Assembly (NCBI GenBank): GCA_024672315.1
Contig: GCA_024672315.1_4714.1
Source of the DNA: a phage
Direction: 5' to 3' (one strand)
DNA: 64,000 bases
Both the position numbers and the translations under genes were made by a program. The stretch's first letter is position 1, and each line of letters starts with the position of its first letter. The notes below the pieces were generated by a model. It saw only the letters and a program-made list of their open reading frames with translations. It was not told where the DNA came from and ran no database searches. Of this stretch, positions 19,971 through 47,038 are shown piece after piece.

Positions 19971-19995
19971 TCACCTAAGTAATATAGCCGTGAAA
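19971..19995 (-). promoter_or_regulatory. candidate phage promoter element, copy 1 (minus-strand reading TTTCACGGCTATATTACTTAGGTGA)
   Basis: 25-bp match (24/25) to element at 47014-47038; both 40-90 nt upstream of leftward genes. Confidence 0.45.
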
Positions 19996-20013
19996 ATTAA
20001 TGTATTAACCTAT

Positions 20014-20970
20014 TCACGCTTTTGCTAAGTAGGGTTGGATCTCATTAATCCGTTTAACCACAACTTCAGGGAAAAGTTTGAGTATTTCATCAGGTGGTAT
20101 TGAACCTTCTGTCCAACGATAGCGTTCAACCATCTCGATGCGCGGACTCCCTCCGACGTCAGCGATACGAAAGATACAGGCGATGCCTAAATCGAAACAT
20201 ACGCTGTAAATATCTTCCGTACCTCCTTTATCAGCAAGTATTTTCGCAAAATGCTCGTTATCGGGAAGAATGGCTAAATTACGGATACACCAAACATTAT
20301 TCCCCATTTCTTCAAGTTTTGGGTAGGTTAAAGTGTGCCCGTATTGCGTTAACCATCGATGATTTTCGAGGTAGAAGTCCTTATCCCCTGGCCGATAACC
20401 CAGTATCACTCCCGTGTAGAAGAAATTGGGCATATCAAGCAGTTCTTGCACTGTCGGGCCGGTATGCTCCCAAAGACAGATTTGTTTACGGTCTATATCG
20501 TAATCTGTGACGTTACTCACCTCCCAACTTATCGTAAGTTCATCGGCAACGTGCCAACCTAAAGCGTGTTCGCCGCCAAGCAGATTAACAATGGTTGACA
20601 CTTCATACTTGTCAAATACGCCTAAATTACGCGGTGGTTGCATCGTACGTAATGGCTCCCACAACACACTGTAATCATAGAGCAAATGGCGACATAAACT
20701 TTTTGTTAGGGGCGTCTGTTCAGTGAACAGGGGAAGAATCACCGTATCCAATAACGGGCGTAACGGATGATCGTTCGGTGGTAACGGGGTAGCCAGCCGA
20801 CCTCCTTCTTTGGGGTAATCGAGACCAAACCCGTAACGCTCCGAAATGAGTGCAATCAGCACTTTTGCTACGCGGTTACGTAGTATGCGATGGATATCAT
20901 CACTGTAACTGAATTTCGGTTTATTACCGCAAACGAAGGTGAAGTATCTGGGCGTTAGCACAGCCATCAT
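20014..20970 (-). CDS. hypothetical protein (318 aa)
   Basis: ORF. Confidence 0.5.
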   Translation of the reverse strand: MMAVLTPRYFTFVCGNKPKFSYSDDIHRILRNRVAKVLIALISERYGFGLDYPKEGGRLATPLPPNDHPLRPLLDTVILPLFTEQTPLTKSLCRHLLYDYSVLWEPLRTMQPPRNLGVFDKYEVSTIVNLLGGEHALGWHVADELTISWEVSNVTDYDIDRKQICLWEHTGPTVQELLDMPNFFYTGVILGYRPGDKDFYLENHRWLTQYGHTLTYPKLEEMGNNVWCIRNLAILPDNEHFAKILADKGGTEDIYSVCFDLGIACIFRIADVGGSPRIEMVERYRWTEGSIPPDEILKLFPEVVVKRINEIQPYLAKA

Positions 20971-20977
20971 CTTTCCC

Positions 20978-21424
20978 TCAATCTAAATAGTACGTGATGG
21001 ATAGGTCTTTTCCATCGAATACAATATCCGTGCAGTCGTGAATGGTCGGTAATACCATTTTTGCTGCTATTGGGACGTATGCCTGCAGTTCCATGAAGTT
21101 ATTCATGCGGAACGCACGACGTACCATCAGCGGTGTTAGCGTAAACGTTACGCTGACGTTACCGCTTGGAAGCAGGTGCATTATCGCATGTCCGTGATCG
21201 CACCAGCAATGGTTTTCGATCCATCCGGTGTAAATCAGAATGTCTTTATCTTCGTCGTAATAAGCAATGCCGGTCTGCTTTAGATGACTAGTGAATCGAG
21301 AGGCTTGCTCGTAGCCTGCACGCAACATTCGAGCAACCAGTCGAGTATTGTTAGCGATTCGATTCTGTTCGTTGGTTTTTGTGGTTTTGAAAATTTCGAT
21401 ACGTTCTGCTTTTGTAATTTGCAT
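20978..21424 (-). CDS. hypothetical protein (148 aa)
   Basis: ORF. Confidence 0.5.
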   Translation of the reverse strand: MQITKAERIEIFKTTKTNEQNRIANNTRLVARMLRAGYEQASRFTSHLKQTGIAYYDEDKDILIYTGWIENHCWCDHGHAIMHLLPSGNVSVTFTLTPLMVRRAFRMNNFMELQAYVPIAAKMVLPTIHDCTDIVFDGKDLSITYYLD

Positions 21425-21502
21425 GATTACTGTCCTTTTGAAATATGTTTAGATAAGGAGGATTTACCCGGTATTAAAAGTTATTTGGTGTATGTAATGT
21501 TT

Positions 21503-22102
21503 TTACTTAGGTTCCAGTATTGGTCCGAACAACCAGAATGTCAGACGCTGGTAAACCTGTTCGATGACTGCAGCTTCTGTTTGCTCTTCTAGTGCTTTCC
21601 CTTTCTTATGTTGTATTTCTGGCGGGATGTCGCCGTTGTAAACATACCCTGTTGAGAAGTCCCACGCCAACCGTTTACCGAAAGTGGGTAAGAACACCTC
21701 TTCGAATCGGAACGCTTTCGAATTCCAATGAAGCAGCTGATCGGATTCAACATGTAAGGCTTTATTACGTTTGCTTGGCGTGTTTCCGAAGTACTGAACG
21801 ATAGCTGATTTCATAACCCGATCGGCGAAGTCTTTGGCTTCGGCCTCATCGAGGGGAGGCAGACGATGTGATAGATTCAGCTTGCGTTGTTCAACATCAA
21901 TCTTACGCATCGCTTTAATCAAATCACCAGGAACGATTTTACCCTTATGGCCTTCCTGTCGGTGTACGAAACACCCCTGGAATAGCACGCAAAGTTCTTG
22001 AGGTGCGCTACTTTCCATTCGCCCATAAGCAACAATCACCGATCGACGACGATCAATAACTTCGCGGATAAACCGCGGCTCAGTAATACTCACCACTGTC
22101 AT
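21503..22102 (-). CDS. hypothetical protein (199 aa)
   Basis: ORF. Confidence 0.5.
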   Translation of the reverse strand: MTVVSITEPRFIREVIDRRRSVIVAYGRMESSAPQELCVLFQGCFVHRQEGHKGKIVPGDLIKAMRKIDVEQRKLNLSHRLPPLDEAEAKDFADRVMKSAIVQYFGNTPSKRNKALHVESDQLLHWNSKAFRFEEVFLPTFGKRLAWDFSTGYVYNGDIPPEIQHKKGKALEEQTEAAVIEQVYQRLTFWLFGPILEPK

Positions 22103-22146
22103 TTAAAGCCCTCTTTATCTTTTTCCATTTCTCTTTACATAACCAC

Positions 22147-22851
22147 TTAAGACGTTGCCATCTTACCTTCCAGAGACTTCTTCGGTAAACCATGGATAAC
22201 TCCTTCCGGGGTTAAGAACACACAGTCTGGATTCTGCGTTCGTGAACGGTCGTCTGGACTGTTCAACGAAAACAGCAATGCAGAAATACCTTTTGTCCGA
22301 TTTAACGTTGCGACGATCACATCAAGCTGCCGTAGCGCATCCGATACTGTTCGATGTGGAACGATTCGCGACTGTTTGAAGCTGGCTAACCGCCAAGTCT
22401 CGAACAAACAACGCAGTTTAAACACGTCGGACGGAATAGCTGTAGATCCCTGTTCGATAACCTCAACCCGATCCGCTTCAGGATAACCTACAGCAACCGC
22501 ACTAAAGTGTTTTACCCCATTATGAAAATCATCGATAGACGCTTCAGCGTATTTACATACCGTGCCAGAAACGACCATCACTTTTGCTAAACCGCGATAA
22601 TTGATCGTTAACGGAATACGAAATACGCGTAAAGCATGTTCCGGATTTAATGAGACGTCATTCACTTTCGCAGATACCAGCGCACCTCGTTCATATCGAG
22701 CTTTGAACGGCAGCCCATTATAAACGGGATTGATCACAACGCCCCCTGGGGAGGCGTTAGCGTTAAGATGGGTGTTAAGCCAATCGGATACTTCCTGTCT
22801 GCTGGTTACGATTAACATAAAACGGTCCTCCATTTCTTTTCCTTCATTCAT
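22147..22851 (-). CDS. hypothetical protein (~234 aa)
   Basis: Track ORF 22147-22872; start trimmed to internal Met, uncertain. Confidence 0.45.
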   Translation of the reverse strand: MNEGKEMEDRFMLIVTSRQEVSDWLNTHLNANASPGGVVINPVYNGLPFKARYERGALVSAKVNDVSLNPEHALRVFRIPLTINYRGLAKVMVVSGTVCKYAEASIDDFHNGVKHFSAVAVGYPEADRVEVIEQGSTAIPSDVFKLRCLFETWRLASFKQSRIVPHRTVSDALRQLDVIVATLNRTKGISALLFSLNSPDDRSRTQNPDCVFLTPEGVIHGLPKKSLEGKMATS

Positions 22852-23494
22852 GGCGCATATCTTCCAAATCATCCTTTTGTTTTGTAAATTCTGATTGCTT
22901 GCGATAAACCTCCCATGAGTCGTATATACCGTAAAAGTTCAAATGGCGTGCATTTAAGTTCACAGTAAATTCTTCCACAGAGGCAAAATCCGAACGAAGC
23001 ATCGAATGGAAGGTGTCATCTCCAGTGCAGCCTCCGTATCCTTCACCCTGATAGACCAAAAGCTGGTGAGGTTGGATACGTGCGGCAACCAATGCAGCTT
23101 GTGGTTCGTCGTAAGGTGGCCATGACAGTAGAATAACGTCGTACTGTGAAAGATCGATGTTTGTGTAGTCGGCTTGCTGAATGTCCTCGATAAACGGGTG
23201 GGGATGTAATTCCGTATCGTAAGCGGTAATATCCTCAACACCGAGTTTACGTAACACGTAAGTCAGGTAACCTGTCCCACAACCCAGGTCAGCGACGCGT
23301 CGCCCGTAACAGATGCTCGCTAACTGGAGCGCGGTATCCATGGTTAACAATGACCACCCGATGCGCTGGGTATATTCTTCACGCACGATCCATTGTTGAT
23401 GGTGCGTCATTGGTTCTAAGATAGCAGCAAGCTGCTGGTACGGCAACGGCATTTTGGTTTCGCCTTGCGTGACTAATGCAATAACGTCGTTCAT
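22844..23494 (-). CDS. SAM-dependent methyltransferase (216 aa)
   Basis: Motif I VADLGCGTGYLTYVL; AAGGAAAC RBS upstream. Confidence 0.6.
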   Translation of the reverse strand: MNDVIALVTQGETKMPLPYQQLAAILEPMTHHQQWIVREEYTQRIGWSLLTMDTALQLASICYGRRVADLGCGTGYLTYVLRKLGVEDITAYDTELHPHPFIEDIQQADYTNIDLSQYDVILLSWPPYDEPQAALVAARIQPHQLLVYQGEGYGGCTGDDTFHSMLRSDFASVEEFTVNLNARHLNFYGIYDSWEVYRKQSEFTKQKDDLEDMRHE

Positions 23495-23519
23495 TTTGTT
23501 TCCTTTTTATCGGCATAAG

Positions 23520-23538
23520 CCCTCCCATGCCGGGAGGG
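23520..23538 (-). terminator. hairpin CCCTCCC/GGGAGGG
   Basis: ccctccc-atgcc-gggaggg; followed on minus strand by CTTATGCCG about 20 nt before methyltransferase ATG. Confidence 0.5.
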
Positions 23539-23636
23539 TACAATTATTCATTTATGTGGGTAAAGGTGTGGATCGGCAGCCGTTGAGGCGATAACGCAAT
23601 AGAACGGCCGTTCATTAATAACTACTGTTTTGATGC

Positions 23637-24143
23637 TCATGCTAAAATTCCCTCATTACCTAACAGTCGATTACGATGACGTCGGTACATTTGACAAAGT
23701 GTTGTGATTTGATAATGTTTGTTGTAGCGTACCTCGATACGTTTTTGCACCTCTTTCCATGGAAGTTTATCGTATTGTCGATAACGATGGATTTCATTTA
23801 ACATACGAAGACGAGTAGGATCGGTGTTCTTTATCGTCGTGAGCTTCACGCGTTGATATCCACGCTGTAGTCCCGATTCGGAATACGTGACATCAAACTC
23901 ATCCTGAATGATGGTGATGATCTCCCGCCACCGACGGTTCTCGCCATCACGTAAATGGACAACCCGCGATAAGATATCGTTCCGATTACGATGACTCAGT
24001 TTGATGTTAAGCATTGAAGCAATCGCGCTAATTGCTCTCTGACTCCGTCCTAACGCTTCACCGATTTCTTTCGATGTCATGACGCCCGCGTTTCGGCGTA
24101 TGAATGCGATTTCGGTTGTTGTGTATTCTTTACCTACTGCCAT
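23637..24143 (-). CDS. Myb/SANT-like HTH repeat protein, paralog A (168 aa)
   Basis: Repeated units of type TSKEIGEALGRSQRAISAIASML; C-terminal QxY/RW-type ending shared with paralogs. Confidence 0.5.
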   Translation of the reverse strand: MAVGKEYTTTEIAFIRRNAGVMTSKEIGEALGRSQRAISAIASMLNIKLSHRNRNDILSRVVHLRDGENRRWREIITIIQDEFDVTYSESGLQRGYQRVKLTTIKNTDPTRLRMLNEIHRYRQYDKLPWKEVQKRIEVRYNKHYQITTLCQMYRRHRNRLLGNEGILA

Positions 24144-24607
24144 TTCTTACCACGTGTGTTATAATAGTAACGCTGACAAAGATGTGTGTGACGATACTCC
24201 CGTTTGAACTCGACGCTGATAATGCGAGCAACTTCTCTCCAGTTAACCCCTTCACGTCGAAGTGCTGTAATACGGTCTGAAATTCTGCACCATTCATCCG
24301 GGTCGTATCGTCGTAGCTTGAGTCGTCGTATTACGGAGGCGACGCTCGCTCTCGATCGGCCAAGATGATTTGACAGCTGTTTGACCGAGTATCTGTGGAT
24401 ATTGTCGCGAATATAGGAAATCTCGTTGTCCGTATATGCCTCATTGGTTCTCGACGAAGGGAACAGCATATACAGCTTATTCTTAATCGCGCTTTCTGTG
24501 CGTTGAAATACAGCAGCCAGCTCACTAACCGGTGGTCTGGGTATCCGGTCCGCGTAATCCTCGAGGCGTGAGAGTTCCTCATCTGTCCAGCGATGGTACT
24601 TGCGCAT
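24134..24607 (-). CDS. Myb/SANT-like HTH repeat protein, paralog B (~158 aa)
   Basis: Start reassigned to ATG 24607 (MRKYHRWTDEELSRL) with AAGGAG RBS; W-x-EEL...RTESAIKNKL repeat. Confidence 0.5.
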   Translation of the reverse strand: MRKYHRWTDEELSRLEDYADRIPRPPVSELAAVFQRTESAIKNKLYMLFPSSRTNEAYTDNEISYIRDNIHRYSVKQLSNHLGRSRASVASVIRRLKLRRYDPDEWCRISDRITALRREGVNWREVARIISVEFKREYRHTHLCQRYYYNTRGKKWQ

Positions 24608-25082
24608 GGGCAACTCCTTTGTTTTTCGTGTAGTAACACCAACGTTGATACAACGCATGTTTATTCGTTGTAATCCCAAATTTAACAACAACGTCGTAGG
24701 TAATAACATCCCAATTTTGGGTGACGTTAAGTCGTTCCGCGATAAACGCGATAATCGCTTCCCGTTCTTGCTTGGTTAGCGCACGACGAATTCCATTAAG
24801 CCGTATAAACTGACGAACCGAGTCATACGAACGGTTTAAATCGTACGCAATCTCCCGCAGCGATTTTTGTCTGATTACCGACTTGATGTACGCACGTTCT
24901 TCTTCCGTATACGGCCGATGCTTTTGACGTTGACGTATTCCTAAGCGTCCCAGACGCGCGTCGACGCTGGCGCGTGTTCGTCCTGTCCGTTGCGCGATTT
25001 CATCAATCGTCATCGACGTGTTCAAATACAGATGCGTAACATCTTTCAGCTCGTCGTCACGCCACGGTTGAGATCGTCCCAT
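24579..25082 (-). CDS. Myb/SANT-like HTH repeat protein, paralog C (167 aa)
   Basis: PWRDDELKDVTHLY...IDEIAQRTGRTRASVDARL and second repeat YTEEERAYIKSV...LREIAYDLNRSYDSVRQ. Confidence 0.5.
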   Translation of the reverse strand: MGRSQPWRDDELKDVTHLYLNTSMTIDEIAQRTGRTRASVDARLGRLGIRQRQKHRPYTEEERAYIKSVIRQKSLREIAYDLNRSYDSVRQFIRLNGIRRALTKQEREAIIAFIAERLNVTQNWDVITYDVVVKFGITTNKHALYQRWCYYTKNKGVAHAQVPSLDR

Positions 25083-25560
25083 CTTGTATCCCTCTTTTCT
25101 TTCTATGATGCCACCAACGCTGATAGACAGCCTGCTTCGTACGTGTTATACCGAAATGCGCATTAACCCGTTCAGCAATGTGGTGCCAATCCTGCGTTTC
25201 TTCCAACAATGTATCAACGAAGGCTATGAAGATCTTAGTATCAGCCTCGCTTAACCGCTTGAAACCATGACGATGTGCTATCGTTCTGATACTGTTTGGA
25301 TCCCTGTTTAAATCGCGCGCGAGCTGTTTATAACTTTTGTGTTTGCAGTGCACTCTGATGTATTCCAACTCATCGACACTGAAACGTTTATGCGGTTTAC
25401 GACGTTCAACATTTAAGTATATCAACCTCGATTTAATTGCACCGTACGTTGTTTCCATGATTTCTGCGATTTCACGGATTTTTAATTTCGGGTGACGATA
25501 GTACAATTCCAGCAACTGTTCATCATCCTTACGATTCCATCGTCGTACTGGAGGTTTCAC
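25057..25560 (-). CDS. Myb/SANT-like HTH repeat protein, paralog D (167 aa)
   Basis: RRWNRKDDEQLLELYY...IREIAEIMETTYGAIKSRL; GTG start with AGGAGA RBS. Confidence 0.5.
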   Translation of the reverse strand: MKPPVRRWNRKDDEQLLELYYRHPKLKIREIAEIMETTYGAIKSRLIYLNVERRKPHKRFSVDELEYIRVHCKHKSYKQLARDLNRDPNSIRTIAHRHGFKRLSEADTKIFIAFVDTLLEETQDWHHIAERVNAHFGITRTKQAVYQRWWHHRKKRGIQDGTISTVA

Positions 25561-25573
25561 AACGAGATTTCTC

Positions 25574-26041
25574 CTATTCTACGCGTTTTAATGCTTGAGT
25601 GTAGTAGAGGCTATGAACACCGCTTAACGTGTAATGGGTGTTAAATTCGTTATTGATGATATTCCGTATTCTCTCCCAGGTGTTATTCTCTTTTCTAAGC
25701 GTATGTATTCGATAATAAATCATCTCTCGACGTTGCGCTTTGCATGCAACAATACCGTAACGGTAGCAGAGTTTAGCGATTGCGTCCACGCTACGGTTGA
25801 ACATCGCTGCAGCTTCTTTTACGCTATGCGTCTTAAGATAATCGGCTAACATCACGCGTTCTTCGAAACAGCAATAGCGGTGACGCGACATGAGTTTCCA
25901 GCGCTTGCGATTACGGTTAATTCGACCTTGAACAGAGCCTTCTGTTCGGTCAAGCCGTGCCGCAATCTCTTGCATCGGGATACCGTTTCGGTACAGGGTA
26001 ATCAATATCGCGTCTTCTTCGGGTGTCCAGTCCTTGACCAT
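25574..26041 (-). CDS. Myb/SANT-like HTH repeat protein, paralog E (155 aa)
   Basis: DWTPEEDAILITLYRNGIPMQEIAARLDRTEGSVQGR. Confidence 0.5.
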   Translation of the reverse strand: MVKDWTPEEDAILITLYRNGIPMQEIAARLDRTEGSVQGRINRNRKRWKLMSRHRYCCFEERVMLADYLKTHSVKEAAAMFNRSVDAIAKLCYRYGIVACKAQRREMIYYRIHTLRKENNTWERIRNIINNEFNTHYTLSGVHSLYYTQALKRVE

Positions 26042-26053
26042 AGTGCCACCCCA

Positions 26054-28789
<2,736 letters not shown>

Positions 28790-28824
28790 GATGGGAGGGA
28801 CACAGGCAATACGCTTTTATTTCG

Positions 28825-29457
28825 TCACGACTTCACGACGCATTCGACTTCGTCGTTCATATAAGCTTCGTATAACGACAGCACTTCCTTCATTTTAATT
28901 TCAGGTAACGCGACGGAACGAATCGCTTTCAGGATATTCCGTGTTTGATGGTGTTTAACCTTCGCTTCACGGGATTTACAGAATTGACGGATACAGGTAT
29001 TAACCTTACCCCCTTCAGCACGTTCGAGGGCGACATGCAGTTTCAGGTCAAGTAATACTTCTGTGAGTTCCTGGGTGGCAGGATCGTTACGAATAAGCCG
29101 CACCGTCCGTTCATCTGGATTCAGCATCTCGAGGAACTGAAGCTTGATCTGTTCAGGTACGGGTTTCGTGTTCATCATGATGGCATCAAGCTGTTCCTTA
29201 ACACCCGGCTCATTAAACACGTAACGTTCGATGCTTACGACGTGTTCTTTTCCTGACTCGCCATAAACCGCCATCGCACGATAGTCATCAAACAGCACGG
29301 CATACAACAAATCCTGTTCCGGTCCGATGGTACCATCGATGAGCTTCGGCGCGTGCTTCTTCAGGAAGCCATAGCGAACAGCTTCATCCGGCATGAGCGT
29401 CCACGCATTAACGGGTTGCTTTACGAGTTCCATGTAACACCTCATCAAGATTATCAC
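28825..29457 (-). CDS. hypothetical protein (up to 210 aa; start uncertain)
   Basis: ORF; overlaps upstream ORF at track start. Confidence 0.45.
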   Translation of the reverse strand: MIILMRCYMELVKQPVNAWTLMPDEAVRYGFLKKHAPKLIDGTIGPEQDLLYAVLFDDYRAMAVYGESGKEHVVSIERYVFNEPGVKEQLDAIMMNTKPVPEQIKLQFLEMLNPDERTVRLIRNDPATQELTEVLLDLKLHVALERAEGGKVNTCIRQFCKSREAKVKHHQTRNILKAIRSVALPEIKMKEVLSLYEAYMNDEVECVVKS

Positions 29458-29728
29458 TTACACCTGGCGGTACCACGATACCGGTACGAATCACGGCAGC
29501 AACTTCCTGCATGCCTTTACCCTTCAACGCATAGGTTTCATGTACCGTATTACGTCGCGTCGTTAACCCAACAAATTTACATACAACCATGTTGTTTTCT
29601 GAAAGGTAAGCGGTGTCGAGTTCACCATGCAACAATTCTTTCTCTTTGGTATCAATACCCAATAACGCAATTTGATAAGCTGAAAGTTTCCAATAGCGCA
29701 TGTTATCACCCAAACTGTTAAGAAGCAT
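29408..29728 (-). CDS. hypothetical protein (106 aa)
   Basis: ORF. Confidence 0.4.
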   Translation of the reverse strand: MLLNSLGDNMRYWKLSAYQIALLGIDTKEKELLHGELDTAYLSENNMVVCKFVGLTTRRNTVHETYALKGKGMQEVAAVIRTGIVVPPGVSDNLDEVLHGTRKATR

Positions 29729-31112: not shown

Positions 31113-31126
31113 GTAAATTATCCTCG

Positions 31127-35892: not shown

Positions 35893-35904
35893 TCAGTTGT
35901 TAAT

Positions 35905-37276: not shown

Positions 37277-37289
37277 TCTATTAATCAGC

Positions 37290-37838: not shown

Positions 37839-37890
37839 AATAGAACCTCATGATAATAGATAATAGAAATGATAGATAGTACAACAAATT

Positions 37891-37914
37891 GAGGGGGTAT
37901 TATCCCACCCCCTC
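37891..37914 (-). terminator. hairpin
   Basis: gagggggt-attatccc-accccctc, 11 nt after stop at 37925. Confidence 0.5.
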
Positions 37915-37924
37915 GTAGGGATTA

Positions 37925-38458
37925 TTATCTGACGACTGCGGTGATTTTGCCATCCATGCCGTCGTAATATGCTGTTAACTTACCAGTAAACAACTCTTCT
38001 AAAAGATGATTTACATCACTAACAAAGTTAGGATTGCCCGCTTTTACAAACTCGATATGACGCGTTTGTTTTACATCACGATCGATTAAACGGATTTCCA
38101 ACAACGCACAAATAAGGCTATCGTTAAGTTTGCCATTCAAATCCAACGCTTTCCCATACGTCGTAGCACGGACGTCTGCATACATACGGTCAACATCATC
38201 CTTCCCAAAACCACAGGAATAGGCGTACGTTGCGATGGTATTACCATTGTCCATTACATAAACGTTACCGCCTGGGTAATCGATGAATCGTTGATCCTTA
38301 TCGCCATGAGCGACGAACTCCAGTGTCGGTCTACCTAGTGAATCACGATTGAATTCGATTGTGGTCAAGCGATCTGGTACCACATGTAACGTAAACGGTT
38401 TTGCGTTGTTACGATCGCTAGTATCGCAGTTAGCCATTACTTTTACAATAACACTCAT
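37925..38458 (-). CDS. hypothetical protein (177 aa), paralog of 37290-37838
   Basis: See paralog; ORF. Confidence 0.5.
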   Translation of the reverse strand: MSVIVKVMANCDTSDRNNAKPFTLHVVPDRLTTIEFNRDSLGRPTLEFVAHGDKDQRFIDYPGGNVYVMDNGNTIATYAYSCGFGKDDVDRMYADVRATTYGKALDLNGKLNDSLICALLEIRLIDRDVKQTRHIEFVKAGNPNFVSDVNHLLEELFTGKLTAYYDGMDGKITAVVR

Positions 38459-38532
38459 GTTTTATTCCTTAGTAGTCCTAGTAGTAGTATTGAGGAATTT
38501 CACCTCATTAGATAGTCTAATTTAGTAATGTT

Positions 38533-38832
38533 TTACTGAAACAAGACATTAAATTCGACGAGATATCCATCGGCTCTATCACCGCGATATCTGTTGCAGA
38601 AAACACCGAATTTCATCAAGAACGCACATAACTCTTCGGCTTTGTATAACGGAATACGATTTTCGTCGAGCAGAGGACACTTATGGCTAACCCGCTCCGA
38701 CGAATCAACGCAACACAAATAAAGAAGGAATCGAACAATAGCTTGGTTCTTAGTGAAGCTCTCGAATTGACCCGCGGTTCTGAACTCATCGAGGAGCTTT
38801 GTCGTTTTCTTCAATCGTTCACGATCAAGCAT
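38533..38832 (-). CDS. hypothetical protein (~99 aa)
   Basis: Start reassigned to ATG 38832 (MLDRERLKK) with GAGGT RBS; track start 38865 lies inside hairpin. Confidence 0.45.
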   Translation of the reverse strand: MLDRERLKKTTKLLDEFRTAGQFESFTKNQAIVRFLLYLCCVDSSERVSHKCPLLDENRIPLYKAEELCAFLMKFGVFCNRYRGDRADGYLVEFNVLFQ

Positions 38833-38854
38833 GTTAACCTCAATACGAACATAA

Positions 38855-38886
38855 CCCTCCTCCAACCCAACAGGGAAGGAGGAGGG
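38855..38886 (-). terminator. hairpin
   Basis: ccctcctcc-N14-ggaggaggg, 10 nt after stop at 38896. Confidence 0.5.
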
Positions 38887-38895
38887 AATATGCTG

Positions 38896-39210
38896 TTATT
38901 CTGTTTTCGGTGTTGAACCGTTCTTCTTGAAGTCGGATTCGTATTTCACGTTAGAATCGAGAACCTCACGAACGGTTTTATCTGTACAACCACGAGCGAT
39001 GTACGCATTAAGATCGTCGCGTAATTTACGCATCGTTGTTTTATCAGCATCAGAAATATCTGACTTGGTAAGACGGAATGCAATTGCATCACGAACTTTA
39101 TTCAGCGTTGCTGGGTTATTACGCTGTTCTGCAAATACTGCTTTGATGAATGTACCGCTATCTTTCGAAGCGACGGCTGCATCAAGAATCTCAATATGCT
39201 TTTCAGACAT
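38896..39210 (-). CDS. hypothetical protein (104 aa)
   Basis: ORF. Confidence 0.45.
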   Translation of the reverse strand: MSEKHIEILDAAVASKDSGTFIKAVFAEQRNNPATLNKVRDAIAFRLTKSDISDADKTTMRKLRDDLNAYIARGCTDKTVREVLDSNVKYESDFKKNGSTPKTE

Positions 39211-39243
39211 CTTCTTTCCTTTAATAAACGATCATCGTCATAT

Positions 39244-40464
39244 TCATTTAGACACCGCCATGCTTCGCGCCATCGCAACGTCATACGCATCCATGATTGC
39301 ATCACCGATAGCGGTATGACGGATCAACGGAATACCCATATCTGGGTACTCTTTGGTGCCTAAGATGGATACCGGTTTGTCTTGATACGCGGCAATCATC
39401 GAACGAATATCCTGAACCTGGTTATAACGGCAGATTGGTTTGAAGCCCGCCTTACGGAACCAATGCTCCAATTGAGGCCAATCTGTTTCGCCACGAGCAA
39501 GATAATAGAAGGTATCTTTACCGTAGTAATCAGTAAACACTTCACGAATTGTATTAATAAACTCGTTTACTTCGGCGACGGCTTCTTTATAATCCATCAC
39601 TTTACTATGTTGAAAACAATAGTCACGCGCTTCCTTCGGTGCTTTGGTTTGCCACCATTCTACCGTTGATTCACTGATACGACCACCGTCAACGATTTGA
39701 CCGTGAACGTCAGGGAAGATATCTATACGTGGGCCGTTAGCAACGGATTCCGGATTAGCTAGATCAAAGAACACAATACCGATTTCCAGCAGTACCCCGT
39801 TCTTTTCCAGACTGAGATTCTCAACATCCAGACAAAAAGCGGGTTTCTCTACCGCCGATAAATCAAAACGTCCTTCATATCGTGGAGCTAGCTCAGCACC
39901 GAGGAACGTCTCTCGGATGAACTGGGAGAATGTTATATTCTCTGCTACTAAATCAATACCTAATTTACTTAGCAGAGGTATAAGTTCACGGTCGTTCTGC
40001 TTAATTAGCAACATCACTTGGTCGTTGACACAACAACTAATTGAGTAAAAGAGATGAACGATATCTAACGGTTTGTACGGAGCCTCAAAAATATGAGTCT
40101 GGAACGATTGGGCTAGCGCCTTATGCGTTTCTTCACGATGATTCATCAGTTGGAAAATAGCACAGCGCAGATAATGTCGAAGTGTTATCCCGTGAAGATG
40201 CGACGTATCTTCTTGAAATAACGTCATGAAACCGTGATACGTATAATACTCTCCTCTTTTAATTTCTTCGTGGAGTTCTTTGTTCCCCTTTATTTCCTCT
40301 GGTGTTATCGGTTCGATTTGATCGAGGATAATGTTGAGCAGGTCACTGCCGTGTACCTTAAACAGTTTTTCAACGGCAAGATTAGGTAATGTCGCAATCG
40401 CTGCGTACATTAATGTTTCTGCGGGATTAAGTTCTTTATTGTCAATTGTGATGGTTAAAGCCAT
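39244..40464 (-). CDS. DEDDh-type 3'-5' exonuclease with ~200-aa N-terminal extension (406 aa)
   Basis: Exo I FCLDVENLSLEKNGVLLEIGIVFFD (DxE) and Exo III HTAIGDAIMDAYD in C-terminal half; start set to ATG 40464 with GAGGT RBS. Confidence 0.6.
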   Translation of the reverse strand: MALTITIDNKELNPAETLMYAAIATLPNLAVEKLFKVHGSDLLNIILDQIEPITPEEIKGNKELHEEIKRGEYYTYHGFMTLFQEDTSHLHGITLRHYLRCAIFQLMNHREETHKALAQSFQTHIFEAPYKPLDIVHLFYSISCCVNDQVMLLIKQNDRELIPLLSKLGIDLVAENITFSQFIRETFLGAELAPRYEGRFDLSAVEKPAFCLDVENLSLEKNGVLLEIGIVFFDLANPESVANGPRIDIFPDVHGQIVDGGRISESTVEWWQTKAPKEARDYCFQHSKVMDYKEAVAEVNEFINTIREVFTDYYGKDTFYYLARGETDWPQLEHWFRKAGFKPICRYNQVQDIRSMIAAYQDKPVSILGTKEYPDMGIPLIRHTAIGDAIMDAYDVAMARSMAVSK

Positions 40465-40489
40465 TTTATTATACCTCATCGAAATCAAA

Positions 40490-40831
40490 TTAGTTCAGTT
40501 CTGGTTTATCAGCAGCCAGACCAAGTCCAGCTAATATCACGTAGTCGTACCAAGCTTTTACTTTTGCTTTCGCTTCATCTAAACTATCAGCGTTGATGTG
40601 CGGAAACTCCTCGTTGACTGGGAAAGGTAAATCGCAGTCGTAGCTGGTATAATCCTTCCAACCTTTCCATTCGATAGTTAAAGAACCAAAAACGGTCTCA
40701 GCGACAATATGGTTATAGCGGCATTCTTCACATGGCGCGCGCTCTCCCGACCAAACAAGCTCATGCTGCGCTAAAAGTTGTTGTACGACCGATAACGGCT
40801 GCTCTTCATTAAGTTCGATACTGTCTATCAT
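40490..40831 (-). CDS. hypothetical protein (113 aa)
   Basis: ORF. Confidence 0.45.
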   Translation of the reverse strand: MIDSIELNEEQPLSVVQQLLAQHELVWSGERAPCEECRYNHIVAETVFGSLTIEWKGWKDYTSYDCDLPFPVNEEFPHINADSLDEAKAKVKAWYDYVILAGLGLAADKPELN

Positions 40832-41424
40832 CGCATACCCTCCTTTTCCTTATCGTAATCGCTGCAAATATTGACAAACGCCGTATTATCAGACAGCCTG
40901 CTGACCATCTGACGGATTGCGACCAATGGTTCAAGTTTAGGATTGATTGATTCACCAGTCAACGCGCTTATTGCTCGTGTGATCTCAACCAAATCAACGT
41001 TCGGGTCTTTGTCATCGATAATAAGCAGACTCTTCGTTGGTTTCTGACGACGTTTGATGATCAACAAATACGTGATGAGGTTCTCACGCCAAGCGTCAGA
41101 ATCCAGATTACGTATTACGGTTAACGCGCGACGTTCTTCCGCCCATGATGGTTTCTCACGGATAACGGGCATGTAAGATAATTGCTCAGCAAGCCCTTTC
41201 AAACTGACCCGGTTGGTGCCACCGGGGTGCTCACTAATCCGCAACATCTCGGCTAACAGACGGACATAGGCGGTCGTTGTCGAAACGCCTCGTAACGGCA
41301 AGAACACATTATGTCCCGGAACCCCATCGTGACTCAGCGGTGCGATATATGCCATGAATCGCCGAATATCATCGTCGGTCTGTTCTCCAGCAACGAACTT
41401 AAACGCTTCCCGTAGAACGCTCAC
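40828..41424 (-). CDS. hypothetical protein (198 aa)
   Basis: ORF; ATGA-type overlap. Confidence 0.45.
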   Translation of the reverse strand: MSVLREAFKFVAGEQTDDDIRRFMAYIAPLSHDGVPGHNVFLPLRGVSTTTAYVRLLAEMLRISEHPGGTNRVSLKGLAEQLSYMPVIREKPSWAEERRALTVIRNLDSDAWRENLITYLLIIKRRQKPTKSLLIIDDKDPNVDLVEITRAISALTGESINPKLEPLVAIRQMVSRLSDNTAFVNICSDYDKEKEGMR

Positions 41425-41710
41425 TATGAAGTCTCCTTAATGTTTCTTGTATACGCAGTCTCTCCGGCAGGTACAGACGTTTGTATAGATCAACTAACAG
41501 ATAACGCATAACGGAAGCAACCACCAGGTATTCGCCTTCGGCTTCCGAGTAGCGTATCATGTTAATCGGGTAGTTCAAATAAGAATAAGAAAAGAGATCA
41601 TCGTTGGTGAGGTGATGATCTTCAAGATACTGACGAAACAATTTTGCTAAGGCATCGTACTCCATTCCGTAATAACACAACGACACCTGTCTTGCAGATA
41701 GTCGTTTCAT
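41399..41710 (-). CDS. hypothetical protein (103 aa)
   Basis: ORF. Confidence 0.4.
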   Translation of the reverse strand: MKRLSARQVSLCYYGMEYDALAKLFRQYLEDHHLTNDDLFSYSYLNYPINMIRYSEAEGEYLVVASVMRYLLVDLYKRLYLPERLRIQETLRRLHSERSTGSV

Positions 41711-42549
41711 GCTGGGTTACCTTTTAGTTTTCCGCGTATCATGTCGACAACGCGTGAGGGATCAGAAATAACATTGGCGATAAGATGATCGATAGGTAGG
41801 TCGAGAACGATTTTCTTCAGCTGGAAAATCGTATCTTTACGACGTACGCCATAGAACACGCCATCTTTAAACACAACCTCGTACGAAATGGGGAGCTGGC
41901 TGATAATCGTGTTAGCGTAATCACCCAACCACATCGACCCCGCCATCAGATGCGCACAAACCGCATGACTAATACGCACATCTTTGTTCTTCTGGCTAAC
42001 GTCTTTGATTTTCGACATGGTGACCAGAAGCTCACCGATCTTACAGAGCATATCGTCATATACCCCAAAGAACTTAATCAGTTGTCGGGCACCTAACGAT
42101 ATATATGTTTCTCGCGGTAAGACACAACACACTTGCGGTAACGTTCCAACCCCATAGACACAACTGTGTGGTGACAATGGGAGCAATTCAGCAACCGCGT
42201 TTTTGATGTTGTTATACTCAACGATATCATTGAACGGTGAAAGGCCTTTCGTAATCGGTTTATCAAGCGTTACATCAAACTCTGCGAATGTCCATGCTGC
42301 TTTACGGGGTTCCCCCTTCTGGTACGGTGGAGCCAATACCGCAACAACGCGAAGCCGATATTCATGGGTATCACGTAGCTTAAGTTGGACCCCCTCATCG
42401 TCTCCTTCACGCACCAGTATGTAGCGGCTTGCGCAGTCATCACATACCACCGTTGGTTCGTGTTGGCCGTATGCTGCAAGCATCGGTTTACTAAGATCTT
42501 TATCACAGTGTTTACAGCGATGATCCTGTTCCTGATAACTGATTTTCAC
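41707..42549 (-). CDS. zinc-ribbon-containing protein (280 aa)
   Basis: N-terminal CKHCDKDL...VVCDDC Cys4 motif. Confidence 0.5.
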   Translation of the reverse strand: MKISYQEQDHRCKHCDKDLSKPMLAAYGQHEPTVVCDDCASRYILVREGDDEGVQLKLRDTHEYRLRVVAVLAPPYQKGEPRKAAWTFAEFDVTLDKPITKGLSPFNDIVEYNNIKNAVAELLPLSPHSCVYGVGTLPQVCCVLPRETYISLGARQLIKFFGVYDDMLCKIGELLVTMSKIKDVSQKNKDVRISHAVCAHLMAGSMWLGDYANTIISQLPISYEVVFKDGVFYGVRRKDTIFQLKKIVLDLPIDHLIANVISDPSRVVDMIRGKLKGNPA

Positions 42550-42564
42550 ACCGAGACCCCTTTG

Positions 42565-43521
42565 TTAATGCAAGACACGATCTGCTGGAATTATCGAGGC
42601 ATTGCTGTCGGACAGATTCGTCGCTTTACGATCGGGACTGAATCGACGAGCGTTCTCTTCATGGTAGTTGACGGGGTTATCCTGTTTTAACAGTTCCATT
42701 GCCTCATCAAACGTTAGTTCCCGAAATCCTCTTGGATAGAGGAACAGGGGTTCATCAACATCCAACCCTTTAACAAACCCGTGCGACAACCAGACGCTAC
42801 CATCAGCACTGTAAAGAACCGGCTCAACGTCATAATCCAAGACGTATTGATACCAATAATTAAACAGTTGAGCAATCCACCGATTACGTAATAAGTAATC
42901 GATCGTAACCGCACTACGCACGCTGTGGCACCAGCCGATCTTACCATCAACTTTCTGCAACAACGTACCCTCATTTGCTTGATGAATAACCGCATTAAAT
43001 AACCACGCAAGATCGGTTGCGAAAAGTGCGGCTTCTTGAATATCGCTAATGTAACGCATGGGTATCGTCAGATGCGTGCGGTAATGCGACATCGCCTCTT
43101 CGTAGTTGTCTCCTTCGATGCAGAGAGTCCCGTTTGGTGACAGATGCCCCTGATTCAACGACTGACCAATATAAAGATCAGCGATCGCATTAATATGTTC
43201 GACGGTACCCAAGGTTAACTCGGACATAAAACAATCGACATCAACAGCCATCGATGTACTGGAAACAAACGGATTGGCTGGGCGAGTTGTATTAGAGAAA
43301 ATAATCGACCAAATCGCTTCGTGTTTTTCATCCGATGGCAAAAACGAAATATGGCGTTCTGCGCTGTTATCGACAACAAATACCTTTACGGTTTTCAAAC
43401 AGCTAGTACAAACATAGCACGTGTTCGGCAACGGCATATCCGAAAACATATCGTAACGAATCGATGCCAACGAAATATCATGTCCGCAATGAGGGCATGT
43501 CGTATCAATAAGCGTTTTCAT
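42565..43521 (-). CDS. zinc-ribbon-containing protein (318 aa)
   Basis: N-terminal CPHCGHD...CYVCTSC Cys4 motif. Confidence 0.5.
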   Translation of the reverse strand: MKTLIDTTCPHCGHDISLASIRYDMFSDMPLPNTCYVCTSCLKTVKVFVVDNSAERHISFLPSDEKHEAIWSIIFSNTTRPANPFVSSTSMAVDVDCFMSELTLGTVEHINAIADLYIGQSLNQGHLSPNGTLCIEGDNYEEAMSHYRTHLTIPMRYISDIQEAALFATDLAWLFNAVIHQANEGTLLQKVDGKIGWCHSVRSAVTIDYLLRNRWIAQLFNYWYQYVLDYDVEPVLYSADGSVWLSHGFVKGLDVDEPLFLYPRGFRELTFDEAMELLKQDNPVNYHEENARRFSPDRKATNLSDSNASIIPADRVLH

Positions 43522-43751
43522 TATTGAATTCCTTTTGATAAGAATAACTGAATATCGGTAAACTGTTCTTCAGGAACATCGTCAGCAGCCGTTAGAACCT
43601 TAGAGCCATGTTCATTGAGGTAAGCTTCCCGTAGACAACGATGACGTCGATTGGCTTCCTGGAACTCAGTGTCCGTCATGTAAACCAGCGTAAACTTCGA
43701 ACGTTTATTCGGATTATATCTCTTATTACGTTTCTTTGGTTTCTTCGCCAT
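43521..43751 (-). CDS. small protein with highly basic N-terminus (~76 aa)
   Basis: Start reassigned to ATG 43751 (MAKKPKKRNKRYNPNKRSK); track start 43784 lies inside hairpin. Confidence 0.45.
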   Translation of the reverse strand: MAKKPKKRNKRYNPNKRSKFTLVYMTDTEFQEANRRHRCLREAYLNEHGSKVLTAADDVPEEQFTDIQLFLSKGIQ

Positions 43752-43762
43752 AATAGCCTCGT

Positions 43763-43792
43763 GAAGGTGGATGGGTGTACCCATCCACCTTC
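43763..43792 (-). terminator. 13-bp-stem hairpin
   Basis: gaaggtggatggg-tgta-cccatccaccttc, 8 nt after stop at 43800. Confidence 0.55.
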
Positions 43793-43799
43793 CTCCATG

Positions 43800-44321
43800 T
43801 TAAAGTGCGTTCATTTCTTCAGGTGTACGTACGGTACGCGTGTTGGGATCAACCATTGCTGGCACACCCGCTGGGCATTTACGGACATCGATTCGCATCT
43901 CTGGTTCTATCGGACGAACGCGATACGTTTTTCCATCATCGGTTAACACCGAAATGGTCAACGCTTGATTCAACTCACTAACGAAGTTCACTAAACGCTG
44001 TTGTCCGCCCTTCGACCAGAAGTTAAGATCGGTTTCTCCATTGAAATAACTGATTCCATCAGCGGTTCCAATCGTGATTTTAACGATACCTGGATAGTCA
44101 CGAAGAAGAGGTGCCTGATAACCTTCATCTTCCGTATCCAGTTTTACCCACGCGCCTCCCGTAGACAAGCAGTTAACTTCCAAGGCGGTTGGTGCGCTGA
44201 CTTCTGCTGATGACCAGGTATACATCGTGCCTAGTTTGGCGTGTCCAGTTTCCAGTTCGCTATAATCCCAAGCATGTGCTGAAGCTGTAATAAATAAAGC
44301 CGCAAGAAACAACTTTTTCAT
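43800..44321 (-). CDS. secreted protein (~174 aa)
   Basis: Start reassigned to ATG 44321 (MKKLFLAALFITASAHA signal peptide) with AGGAA RBS. Confidence 0.55.
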   Translation of the reverse strand: MKKLFLAALFITASAHAWDYSELETGHAKLGTMYTWSSAEVSAPTALEVNCLSTGGAWVKLDTEDEGYQAPLLRDYPGIVKITIGTADGISYFNGETDLNFWSKGGQQRLVNFVSELNQALTISVLTDDGKTYRVRPIEPEMRIDVRKCPAGVPAMVDPNTRTVRTPEEMNAL

Positions 44322-44376
44322 TCTTTCGATTCCTATTAAAAAGTGACCGATTTCTGTGGTCGAGATTGCTAATAAA

Positions 44377-44838
44377 TTAATTCCGGTTTTGTTTCCGTAT
44401 TGCACGGTTACGTTTACGTTCTTGGTCCTTGATGGTACCAAGAAACTTCTTTAATTCTGACGGTTCGAGCGTACCCTCACGTACCACACCGTTTTGTTCG
44501 ATATGGTACGACCAATAACCAACTTCAGCCGTTAAGGATAACGTTGTCGGTTGTTCGTCAGGTAACGATCGGGGCGAGAAAATAAAGAGTAATTCAAAGG
44601 GCGTTTCTCGGCTGATGGTGGGACGGATACTCACATCAAGCCCCTCCCATCGCTGAGGTTTAAATATTCCTCCGGCGGCGATGATTGTCTCCGAGCGCTG
44701 GTCTACAAGCTCAGCTAATTCACGATCATCATTGAAATAAATATCGTGAAGGATATCCGTATCGATAAAAAACCCGCGATCCGAATCGTGACGAACAATG
44801 GAATTCTTCATTCTAACGCCTTTGTTGTTTGTTTTCAT
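44377..44838 (-). CDS. hypothetical protein (153 aa)
   Basis: ORF. Confidence 0.45.
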   Translation of the reverse strand: MKTNNKGVRMKNSIVRHDSDRGFFIDTDILHDIYFNDDRELAELVDQRSETIIAAGGIFKPQRWEGLDVSIRPTISRETPFELLFIFSPRSLPDEQPTTLSLTAEVGYWSYHIEQNGVVREGTLEPSELKKFLGTIKDQERKRNRAIRKQNRN

Positions 44839-44885
44839 GTCCTATACGAACATGAAAAACCGTTAATTTTTACCGTAGTCGTGTG

Positions 44886-45161
44886 TTAAAAATCCACACC
44901 GCGACCCGTCATCGACGAAGGAACCGCGTGATAATAGAAGTAGATGTAATGGTCACGATGGCTAAAACAGTTTTTGCAAGCATAGAACTCTCCAGATCCA
45001 ATGAATGATTTAATACGTGTAACTTGAGGGTGTCGTGCGATTAACGCCTGTAAAACGATTTCCATTTGGTGTGCGCTCAGGCCCGGTCGAGCTGCGACAT
45101 GATAATGAAGCTCCTTAAGAAATCGCTTCCAGGGGTCAGGTTGTGTCGATGATCGAGGCAT
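44886..45161 (-). CDS. hypothetical protein (91 aa)
   Basis: ORF with AAGGAGA RBS. Confidence 0.45.
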   Translation of the reverse strand: MPRSSTQPDPWKRFLKELHYHVAARPGLSAHQMEIVLQALIARHPQVTRIKSFIGSGEFYACKNCFSHRDHYIYFYYHAVPSSMTGRGVDF

Positions 45162-45199
45162 CTTTATCTCCTTAACGGGTGCTGGTAACGCAGCATAAA

Positions 45200-45217
45200 C
45201 CCTCCCCGAAGGGAGGG
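45200..45217 (-). terminator. hairpin CCCTCCC/GGGAGGG
   Basis: ccctccc-cgaa-gggaggg; followed on minus strand by TTTATGCTG about 30 nt before next ATG. Confidence 0.5.
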
Positions 45218-45227
45218 CGGTTAACGA

Positions 45228-45785
45228 TCACTCCATCCATACTTCTTCGTCGTAATGATTTTCTATCGCATTACGCCAAAAACGCACGGTGTCCAAACTA
45301 ATCGGCGCATAGAAATGCTGATCAACGCCGACATTAAGTCCGTTAGCTTTCGCTAACATACAGCGATGAATATGACCGAATAAATTAAAGTAGCCTGGGT
45401 TTCTTTCGCTGGGCTTATGGCATAGCCAGTAGGATTCGTCATTGCTAATCGGCAACACCAACGGATGTTCATAAACCGCAGCAAACCCCATACCGAGCAA
45501 TTTATCACGCCACGCTTCAAAGCTTAATCCTGTCGCTTTGTATGCGTCTTCGTCCCAATTCCCCATCACCAATTGAACCTGGATATCAGAACGAATGGCT
45601 TCCACGAACTCGAACTTACCCCAATCACCTAAATGCCATAACACACTGTTCTTTGGAAGATTGTTGATGGCTTTCAGCATATGCTGGTTCATATCGGCGA
45701 CGCTTGCGAACGGACGGCGTGAATACGTCCAGGTACGCTCGCTATCAAAATGGGTATCCGACGTAAAGAAGATGGCCGGGGTCAT
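45228..45785 (-). CDS. metallophosphoesterase / Ser-Thr protein phosphatase-like (185 aa)
   Basis: Calcineurin-like motifs SDTHFD, HLGDWG, GNWDE, GHIH. Confidence 0.65.
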   Translation of the reverse strand: MTPAIFFTSDTHFDSERTWTYSRRPFASVADMNQHMLKAINNLPKNSVLWHLGDWGKFEFVEAIRSDIQVQLVMGNWDEDAYKATGLSFEAWRDKLLGMGFAAVYEHPLVLPISNDESYWLCHKPSERNPGYFNLFGHIHRCMLAKANGLNVGVDQHFYAPISLDTVRFWRNAIENHYDEEVWME

Positions 45786-46264
45786 TGATTTAATTGCTCC
45801 AGAAACGCACGTCCCGATTTACTTGCTTTTAAATGCTGTTCTGCGGAAGTAAGCAGAAGATCGGTTGGCGTGTATGCAGCGCCACCTTTCCATGCTGTTT
45901 TCAGTTTACCCTTTTCGATACTGAACTGAATCAGTTGTTGGGTACCGAAGTTAAGCGTGTTCGTCGCAGCACTAAATACACCACCCATCATGCTGTAACC
46001 AAAGACTTTCACGTTTTCCGTGTAGAAGTCATTGTCGATCAATTTGTTCTGAAGCTCGAGTTGGTCGGACGGTAGCAATCCCCCATCAAAGACGCTTAAA
46101 ATACCAGCCAGGCGATACATACTCACCTTTCCTGAAACGCCCACCACGTAATTGCCATACAGGGTTTCTTCCAGTTTAGCAACAACGGTGCGATCGTCGG
46201 AGGTTTTCATCGAAACCTCAATACCATCACCAACTTCTGTTAACGTTAAATCAACGATACTCAT
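45782..46264 (-). CDS. hypothetical protein (160 aa)
   Basis: ORF; ATGA-type overlap with phosphatase gene. Confidence 0.45.
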   Translation of the reverse strand: MSIVDLTLTEVGDGIEVSMKTSDDRTVVAKLEETLYGNYVVGVSGKVSMYRLAGILSVFDGGLLPSDQLELQNKLIDNDFYTENVKVFGYSMMGGVFSAATNTLNFGTQQLIQFSIEKGKLKTAWKGGAAYTPTDLLLTSAEQHLKASKSGRAFLEQLNQ

Positions 46265-46286
46265 TCATTATTCTCCGCTTTCATGT

Positions 46287-46973
46287 TTAACACATGATTT
46301 CACCATGTTTCTTTTCAACATACGTATAAACGTCATCCAAATAAGCAATGAGTTTATCACGATCCCCACACAGCGATTTAATCACCGCAATCTCTTTCAT
46401 ATAAAGCTGCTGACCTAACGCTGGATACGTAATCCAAGCGTAGCCGTCAGGCGCAAATTTAGAAATAAGATAATCGGCGGTTTCCTGTAATGCGAACTCT
46501 TTGCTCATCTGGCCGTAACGATGTTCGATTGCACGGATACCAAAACGTTCGCTATCGAGACGACCCATATCCGCCAGACGAAGCACCTGAGAAGCAACCG
46601 AACTACGTGGACCAGAGTACGATGCACGATGTTCAGCAATAAGTACGCGTATCTCCTCGATGTCTTCCGGTGTGAAAATATGCTGCTCGTTACGAAGCAG
46701 GATAACCGACGCACGAATACCCCCGATAAGGTGGTGGTATGTTCTGTTTTCGTGGCAAGCGATATCATGCATAAAAGCAGCGGTTAATAGACGACGACGT
46801 TCCGTGGGTCTGATGATCCCAACCACATCAGCAAGTTCATTTGCCAGTTCAACAACGGCAAGCACATGTTCTTCTTGATGTGCAAGATCGTTCTTCCGAA
46901 TATTTTCAATTACTTCAGCGCGTGTTTCCTGAGATAAAAAATTTAAACAATCCAACGAATATAAAGATTTCAT
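46287..46973 (-). CDS. HD-domain phosphohydrolase (228 aa)
   Basis: H...HD...D pattern (HQEEHVLAV ... AAFMHDIACH); first gene downstream of TATATTAC element. Confidence 0.55.
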   Translation of the reverse strand: MKSLYSLDCLNFLSQETRAEVIENIRKNDLAHQEEHVLAVVELANELADVVGIIRPTERRRLLTAAFMHDIACHENRTYHHLIGGIRASVILLRNEQHIFTPEDIEEIRVLIAEHRASYSGPRSSVASQVLRLADMGRLDSERFGIRAIEHRYGQMSKEFALQETADYLISKFAPDGYAWITYPALGQQLYMKEIAVIKSLCGDRDKLIAYLDDVYTYVEKKHGEIMC

Positions 46974-47013
46974 CGCACGTACCTCTTTGAATCTATTAAT
47001 AAATTTTCTTTAC

Positions 47014-47038
47014 TCACGTAAGTAATATAGCCGTGAAA
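47014..47038 (-). promoter_or_regulatory. candidate phage promoter element, copy 2 (minus-strand reading TTTCACGGCTATATTACTTACGTGA)
   Basis: 24/25 identity with 19971-19995; sits in divergent intergenic region 41-65 nt upstream of HD gene. Confidence 0.45.

Follow-up and report, generated by a model that had tools for sequence, protein, structure and literature searches.

The 64,000-nt window analysed here, a stretch of phage DNA (NCBI GenBank assembly GCA_024672315.1, contig GCA_024672315.1_4714.1), carries two near-identical copies of a 25-nt element, and both copies are very probably early promoters recognized by the multisubunit virion RNA polymerase (vRNAP) injected together with the DNA of a chimallivirus resembling phage Goslar. 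We base this on a family of related sites in the Goslar genome, on their intergenic placement on one strand, on published early-promoter consensi, on conservation upstream of the chmA gene and on steps in RNA sequencing (RNA-seq) data, and from these lines together we infer both recognition by the vRNAP and the position of the transcription start. An earlier reading of this DNA, made from the sequence alone (the original prediction), had guessed at a phiKZ-type early promoter for the virion polymerase, and the same lines of evidence, along with the Goslar-like nature of the genome, support that guess.

Two copies of a 25-nt element in a Goslar-like genome

Almost from end to end, the window matches Escherichia phage vB_EcoM_Goslar (NC_048170, 93207-158707) at 95-96% identity; Goslar is a nucleus-forming phiKZ-like jumbo phage (Chimalliviridae), and its GenBank record annotates terminators and no promoter features. 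The pattern TTTCACGGCTATATTACTTA[G/C]GTGA describes both copies of the element, which lie on the minus strand at 19971-19995 (copy 1, TTTCACGGCTATATTACTTAGGTGA) and 47014-47038 (copy 2, TTTCACGGCTATATTACTTACGTGA) and share 24 of their 25 bases, as had been predicted. When up to three mismatches were allowed, these two were the only sites in the window, against an expectation of 0.00 from 100 dinucleotide-preserving shuffles. Since the 8-mer TATATTAC that forms the core of the element is not enriched in the window on its own (2 found versus 2.5 expected), the signal sits in the 25-nt identity and its context. The idea that the core 8-mer is avoided elsewhere was dropped, as, under a third-order Markov model, the minus strand outside the promoters is not depleted and the plus strand only mildly so (1 occurrence versus about 5 expected).

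Both copies are intergenic, in line with the non-coding location first proposed for them, and both are co-oriented with the gene downstream, which lies to their left. The end of copy 2 is 40 nt away from the downstream ATG (46973), and this copy occupies the divergent region between a leftward HD-domain gene and a rightward helicase gene that starts at 47182, where it had been correctly described as heading a block of early type. For copy 1, the distance from its end to the downstream ATG (19905) is 65 nt; this copy lies 18 nt past the stop of the upstream gene (20014-20970), inside a long co-directional block. The claim that each copy precedes the first gene of a leftward run therefore holds for copy 2, while copy 1 is internal to its run.

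Within copy 1, the core TATATTAC is at 19979-19986, a TTTCAC box at 19990-19995 and a GTGA box at 19971-19974; together with an upstream A/T-rich box, TTAATACATTAA, the extended promoter as delimited by the family alignment and consensus spans 19969-20010. In copy 2, the core is at 47022-47029 and the alignment delimits an extended promoter at 47012-47053, which heads the leftward early block. Scored with the position weight matrix (PWM) described below, copy 1 reaches 48.9 and copy 2 reaches 43.6. Copy 1 is identical to the Goslar site at 113790, and its flanks differ from those in Goslar by three substitutions, all of them outside the element; the surroundings of copy 2 match Goslar around position 142793 at 100% over 261 nt. 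The Goslar-like genomes available for footprinting, Goslar itself and two IMG/VR contigs, are too similar to one another to inform.

A family of 13 sites and its likeness to known early promoters

The original prediction had proposed a search of the complete genome for further copies and had held that the element should not be similarly frequent inside coding regions. Run on the complete Goslar genome, this search found TATATTAC 10 times, always on the minus strand, and 8 of these occurrences carry the extended motif shared with the window copies. A PWM built from the extended sites added 5 sites with the core TACATTAC, giving 13 strong sites with the consensus c..tAaT.cAaaa.aTTTCAcG.C-TAyATTAC-cTa.gTGAt, in which the TTTCAC box and the upstream A/T-rich box are conserved alongside the core. 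Every one of the 13 is on the minus strand and precedes a co-oriented gene by 31-211 nt. Coding sequence makes up 93% of the genome, yet 12 of the sites are intergenic, so that the expected scarcity inside genes was indeed seen. The lone non-intergenic site (Goslar 49725) falls within the tiny gene gp047, 47 nt past its annotated start, and the start of this open reading frame is probably mis-annotated. The read density of gp047 (Goslar 49584-49772) is one third of that of gp046.

A TTCAC/GTGAA inverted repeat had also been pointed out around the core, and it is present in both copies, with 5 bp in copy 1 and 4 bp in copy 2. Its arms form 2-5 Watson-Crick pairs per site and show no compensatory change across the 13 sites, and it was rejected as a structural feature; the repeat is a by-product of two conserved boxes. 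The promoters of coliphage N4, which are likewise used by a virion-delivered polymerase right after injection, are short hairpins with a stem of 5-7 bp and a 3-nt loop that are read by a single-subunit polymerase. Unlike these, the repeat described here has a spacer of 15-16 nt and does not covary, and an N4-like hairpin promoter was discarded on the same pairing data.

The element closely resembles early promoters described for other phiKZ-like phages, whose consensi have been given as TATATTAC for phiKZ, TTAWTAVAA_HYWTTTRARR_BTATATTACDWHDGTG for 201phi2-1 and ...TTTCARRYAKATATTATYWAAGTGWA for N1M2 and OBP (PMC7058600). The 25-mer aligns over its full length with the consensi of 201phi2-1, OBP and N1M2, through TTTCA, the core, four unconstrained positions and GTGA. 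Such motifs have been reviewed as centred near -10 and as defining vRNAP early promoters, and the early promoters of phiKZ and 201phi2-1 are conserved at -10, -20 and -30. Both window copies have the exact phiKZ core, a T-rich box near -20 and an A/T-rich box near -30, and they belong to a set of multiple intergenic copies that are co-oriented with the genes downstream.

With the phiKZ early promoters, the sites share the identical 8-nt core and, upstream of about -19, a T-rich element beyond which lies an A/T-rich region (PMC8244752), as well as their presence in many copies (28-32 in phiKZ) ahead of early operons, including that of the nuclear-shell gene. They differ from phiKZ in having a strongly conserved (G)TGA 5-8 nt past the core, in using TACATTAC at 5 of the 13 sites, and in numbering about 13-14 per genome in Goslar, all on one strand; the phiKZ chmA promoter also has TTTGAG where the Goslar-type sites have TTTCAC(G). 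The extended consensus of 201phi2-1 (PMC11512511), OBP and N1M2 (PMC7058600), phages that differ in host and genus, spans the 25-mer down to the downstream GTG(A), while OBP and N1M2 have ATATTAT instead of TATATTAC. For 201phi2-1, only 6 early sites are backed by mapped starts (PMC11512511).

Conservation of the motif extends to the gene for the nuclear-shell protein, ChmA (chimallin). Using Goslar ChmA, we retrieved the chmA upstream regions of phages from five other genera whose proteins are 22-26% identical to it. The annotated chmA start is preceded at 65-85 nt by TATATTAC in phiKZ, Erwinia phage RAY and Proteus phage 10, with an A-rich tract and TTT(G/A)A upstream of this core; TATATTAC is likewise present upstream of the chmA match in KpHz_2, a Serratia/Klebsiella phage with an unannotated record, and Ralstonia phage RP12 has the core variant ACATATTAC upstream of chmA. 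GGTG follows the core in several of these regions. In phiKZ, the chmA gene (PHIKZ054) is known to carry the early motif and, in addition, a middle promoter. An identical 8-nt core ahead of chmA, despite only about 23% identity between the ChmA proteins, points to a frozen recognition element. A scan of IMG/VR with a degenerate pattern matched mostly contigs of 180-315 kb, the size of jumbo-phage genomes.

The core also invites a reading as a host promoter, in which TATATT would serve as the -10 element of sigma-70 promoters used by Escherichia coli RNA polymerase at the start of infection. TATATT and TACATT both conform to T-A-x-x-x-T, the pattern of -10 hexamers, and copy 1 reaches 9 of 12 as TTAATA-16-TATATT; the likeness to extended -10 promoters goes further, with such a hexamer about 7 nt before the presumed start and a polymerase of the beta/beta' homologue kind. 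The -35 element at 16-18 nt that defines sigma-70 promoters is what fails. Copy 2 has no -35 match, the match in copy 1 is of a quality found at chance frequency (1.2 expected per 500 nt), and the 13 sites show no conservation at the -35 position, so that the arrangement was rejected as a sigma-70 promoter for want of a TTGACA-like element at that distance; the original prediction had already considered the spacing unfit. What is conserved instead is the AC of the core, the GTGA box and, with a gap of only 3 nt before the core, the TTTCAC box; a sigma-70 promoter has a different geometry. The motif is moreover common to phages of Pseudomonas, Erwinia, Proteus, Klebsiella and Ralstonia, phiKZ-type transcription has been reported as rifampicin-insensitive, and a vesicle is reported to surround both the injected Goslar genome and the vRNAP. 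We consider use by the host polymerase highly improbable.

A repeat with no promoter function would be a second alternative to an early promoter, whether as a remnant of recombination or duplication, as the binding site of a regulatory protein or, through a hairpin next to copy 1, as part of a terminator. An exact 20-mer, including non-consensus positions, is common to four Goslar sites and could reflect duplication or gene conversion, and the hairpin does overlap the 3' end of copy 1. Set against this are the strict orientation, intergenic placement and position ahead of genes of all 13 sites, the retention of the core upstream of chmA across genera, and an expression level that rises rather than falls at every site (see below). 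Copy 2 lacks the hairpin, and a search for known RNA families found no Rfam match anywhere in the window. A role other than that of a promoter is thus hardly to be expected, and early promoters recognized by the vRNAP account for these features.

Expression at the sites and a proposed mechanism

Armbruster et al. (bioRxiv 10.1101/2023.09.20.558163) sequenced RNA from Goslar infections at 30 min, comparing cells in which ChmA was knocked down with controls. Under knockdown, the phage genome remains inside the early vesicle and its transcripts correspond to those of a 5-20 min infection, and the authors attribute this transcription to the virion polymerase. We combined the log2 fold change (log2FC, ChmA knockdown versus control) in their Supplementary Table 2 with the Goslar annotation; these data are gene-level and possibly unstranded, and they come from Goslar as a 96%-identical relative of the window phage.

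Goslar genes fall into two expression classes, late (log2FC about -3 to -8) and early (about -1.3 to +1.4). The gene just past the site has a log2FC of +0.93 to +1.32 at 12 of the 13 sites and of +0.49 at the thirteenth (gp200). When gene boundaries were ranked by the jump in log2FC, the top seven and the ninth all had a site, and the eighth, gp047/gp048, is the boundary whose site lies within the annotated gp047. At copy 2, log2FC steps from -5.1 for gp160, the rightward helicase gene, to +1.1 for gp159, the leftward HD gene, and read density in the knockdown rises about 80-fold, from 6 to 467 per kb. At copy 1, the step is from +0.19 (gp106) to +1.08 (gp105), and knockdown read density rises about 2-fold, from 474 to 1006 per kb, a doubling that fits an internal promoter added to read-through. 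On these data, the genes downstream of the sites are expressed under a condition in which, as the authors interpret it, only the virion polymerase acts.

The same profile covers the units downstream. All genes of the block past copy 2 are retained in the ChmA knockdown (log2FC -0.6 to +1.1), and the lone plus-strand open reading frame within it, the gp145 homologue, has a value of +1.39 that probably comes from unstranded read-through. Expression falls at the terminator at 14321-14353, from +0.65 for gp094 to -5.4 for gp093. Plus-strand Goslar genes are all late with four exceptions, three of them embedded in leftward early units and the fourth, gp245 (log2FC -0.72), lying just upstream of the chmA promoter; early transcription in Goslar is strictly unidirectional.

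Goslar also has the enzymes that an early promoter of this class calls for. Its annotation lists several RNA polymerase beta-type subunits, gp078, gp196, gp205 and gp207 in the late class and gp165, gp171 and gp247 in the early class, as expected of a genome encoding split beta/beta' polymerases of both the virion and the non-virion type. Homologues of gp165 and gp171 are in the window, where the Pfam match to Rpb2_6 is weak.

Could the sites be middle-class promoters of the non-virion RNA polymerase, or serve both of the phage's polymerases? Genes midway along the block (log2FC about 0 to 0.5) seem to gain transcription in normal infection, and the phiKZ chmA gene, with its early and middle promoters, offers a precedent. 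The published middle and late motifs are different, however, with TACT centred at -22 and TATG at the start site, while the motif found here fits the early consensus, and it is the genes right after the sites that have the highest relative expression when nucleus formation is blocked. Use by the non-virion polymerase, alone or in part, appears very unlikely, and we return to early promoters served by the vRNAP.

Such a promoter would be tripartite, with an A/T-rich box at about -30, TTTCAC at about -20 and a -10-like core, TA(T/C)ATTAC. The vRNAP would bind these three boxes and start about 7 nt past the core, probably at the G of the conserved (G)TGA that lies 5-8 nt past it. The predicted +1 positions are 19972 and 47015 in the window and 113783 and 142786 in Goslar, and the resulting leaders would be 67 nt long from copy 1 and 42 nt long from copy 2. 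Copy 2 would then stand at the head of a long early block that runs leftward from the HD-domain gene and takes in genes of nucleotide metabolism and DNA repair, and copy 1 would act as an internal booster, raising transcription about 2-fold for the final dozen small early genes before the unit stops at 14321-14353.

Several points weigh against early promoters of this kind. The start sites of both copies are predictions only, and the RNA-seq, with the resolution given above, is from Goslar and not from the window phage. The approximately 2-fold step at copy 1 could reflect mRNA stability, and the attribution of knockdown transcription to the vRNAP is the interpretation of its authors, not a direct assay. 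The resemblance of the core to the sigma-70 -10 hexamer (TATATT) counts here as well. Finally, expression shows no clear drop at the two annotated terminators within the 27-kb block past copy 2, and this block may therefore contain further unrecognized, weak promoters.

The promoter class itself is textbook material for phiKZ-like phages, and the finding is real but ordinary; a literature search found no paper or annotation describing the motif for Goslar or its relatives. The motif amounts to an explicit map of early promoters, about 13-14 sites on one strand, for Goslar-type phages, the main E. coli model of nucleus formation, and this map accounts for the way in which early and late genes fall into blocks in the published RNA-seq. 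It can be used in annotating and engineering this model phage, and a promoter of about 40 bp is compact enough for a transgene to be expressed off the injected genome ahead of phage nucleus formation. Jumbo-phage RNA polymerases in general have no reported sigma homologue, and with the motif in a phage of the tractable host E. coli, the way in which such enzymes recognize their promoters becomes easier to test. If the sites are promoters, changing the core from TATATTAC to TGTGTTAC should affect initiation.

Start-proximal hairpins, gene blocks and other features of the window

Near the predicted start of copy 1 lies a minus-strand hairpin, GGTGAAGC-N13-GCTTCACC (19947-19975); its 5' arm shares bases with the GTGA box and takes in the predicted start itself. 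It is conserved in Goslar, and the 73-nt stretch that contains it (19903-19975) folds at -15.6 kcal/mol (z = -2.0). For copy 2, we found only a marginal stem (-1.2 kcal/mol, z = +0.96), and the hairpin is thus best regarded as an optional add-on and not as part of the promoter. At 8 of the 13 Goslar sites, compared with 3.6 expected (P ~0.01), a local stem-loop pairs the base predicted to be transcribed first or second, with stems beginning between -4 and +1 relative to the conserved G. It is conceivable, though we regard it as doubtful, that a stem-loop at the very start, its 5' arm reaching into the GTGA start box, is a built-in feature of early transcripts in Goslar-like phages. Were this so, a 5'-terminal hairpin could protect mRNAs made in the vesicle from 5'-end-dependent decay or mark them for export, and the longer stem in read-through RNA could be an attenuator or insulator.

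A possible third, degenerate copy lies on the minus strand at 56902-56943, with the core TACATAAC at 56912-56919 preceded by ATATATTAAC. Its PWM score is 20.5, compared with a maximum of 13.8 over 200 shuffles, and it is intergenic, located upstream of the gene for a subunit of the non-virion RNA polymerase (54810-56816). Read density at the equivalent place in Goslar rises slightly from gp166 to gp165, and the site is a weak candidate for an early promoter.

The first gene past copy 2 (46287-46973, minus strand) encodes an HD-domain phosphohydrolase, the homologue of Goslar gp159 (Pfam HD, 5.7e-8), and the first gene past copy 1 (19588-19905, minus strand) encodes a 105-aa protein, the homologue of gp105, for which no Pfam family matched. 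The minus-strand early block that would be driven from copy 2 covers 20014-46973, the homologues of gp159 to gp106, with expression kept in the ChmA knockdown; its annotated contents include a metallophosphoesterase, an exonuclease, a thymidylate synthase and an NAD-dependent ligase. The minus-strand block that would be boosted from copy 1, as suggested by the expression step, covers 14373-19905, the homologues of gp105 to gp094. This early unit ends at a strong intrinsic terminator on the minus strand (14321-14353), a 15-bp stem followed by TTTCCTATTT, and the terminator marks the border between the early block and the late tail genes. The divergent gene on the other side of copy 2, which Pfam identifies as a SNF2/DEAD helicase gene (47182-49263, plus strand), is of the late class, which depends on the non-virion polymerase, and is not driven by the element.

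A further hairpin followed by TTTTT lies on the plus strand at 47118-47151, 30 nt before the ATG of this late helicase gene, and has a GC-rich stem of 10 bp (-24 kcal/mol over 66 nt). Goslar annotates it as a terminator, and there are no plus-strand genes for about 30 kb upstream of it; one possibility is that it acts on antisense transcripts of the early block. Within the early block, the window phage is missing three small Goslar early genes or parts of genes, namely gp108, gp112 with most of gp113, and gp120, and the corresponding indel sites are at 21456-21503, 23548-23553 and 26377-26378. These differences are indel turnover inside the block.

Elsewhere, the homologue of gp164, an SF2 DNA helicase gene at 52183-54813 on the minus strand, encodes 876 aa compared with 524 aa in Goslar. 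The difference comprises an in-frame insertion of 1050 bp at about 53326-54376 with LAGLIDADG/homing-endonuclease domains, which looks like an intein that Goslar lacks. The most divergent stretch of the window is the tail-fibre region at 5260-6986 (the homologues of gp089 and gp090), which contains an alignment gap and is about 85% identical to Goslar, compared with about 95% elsewhere; this divergence suggests that the two phages may differ in host range.

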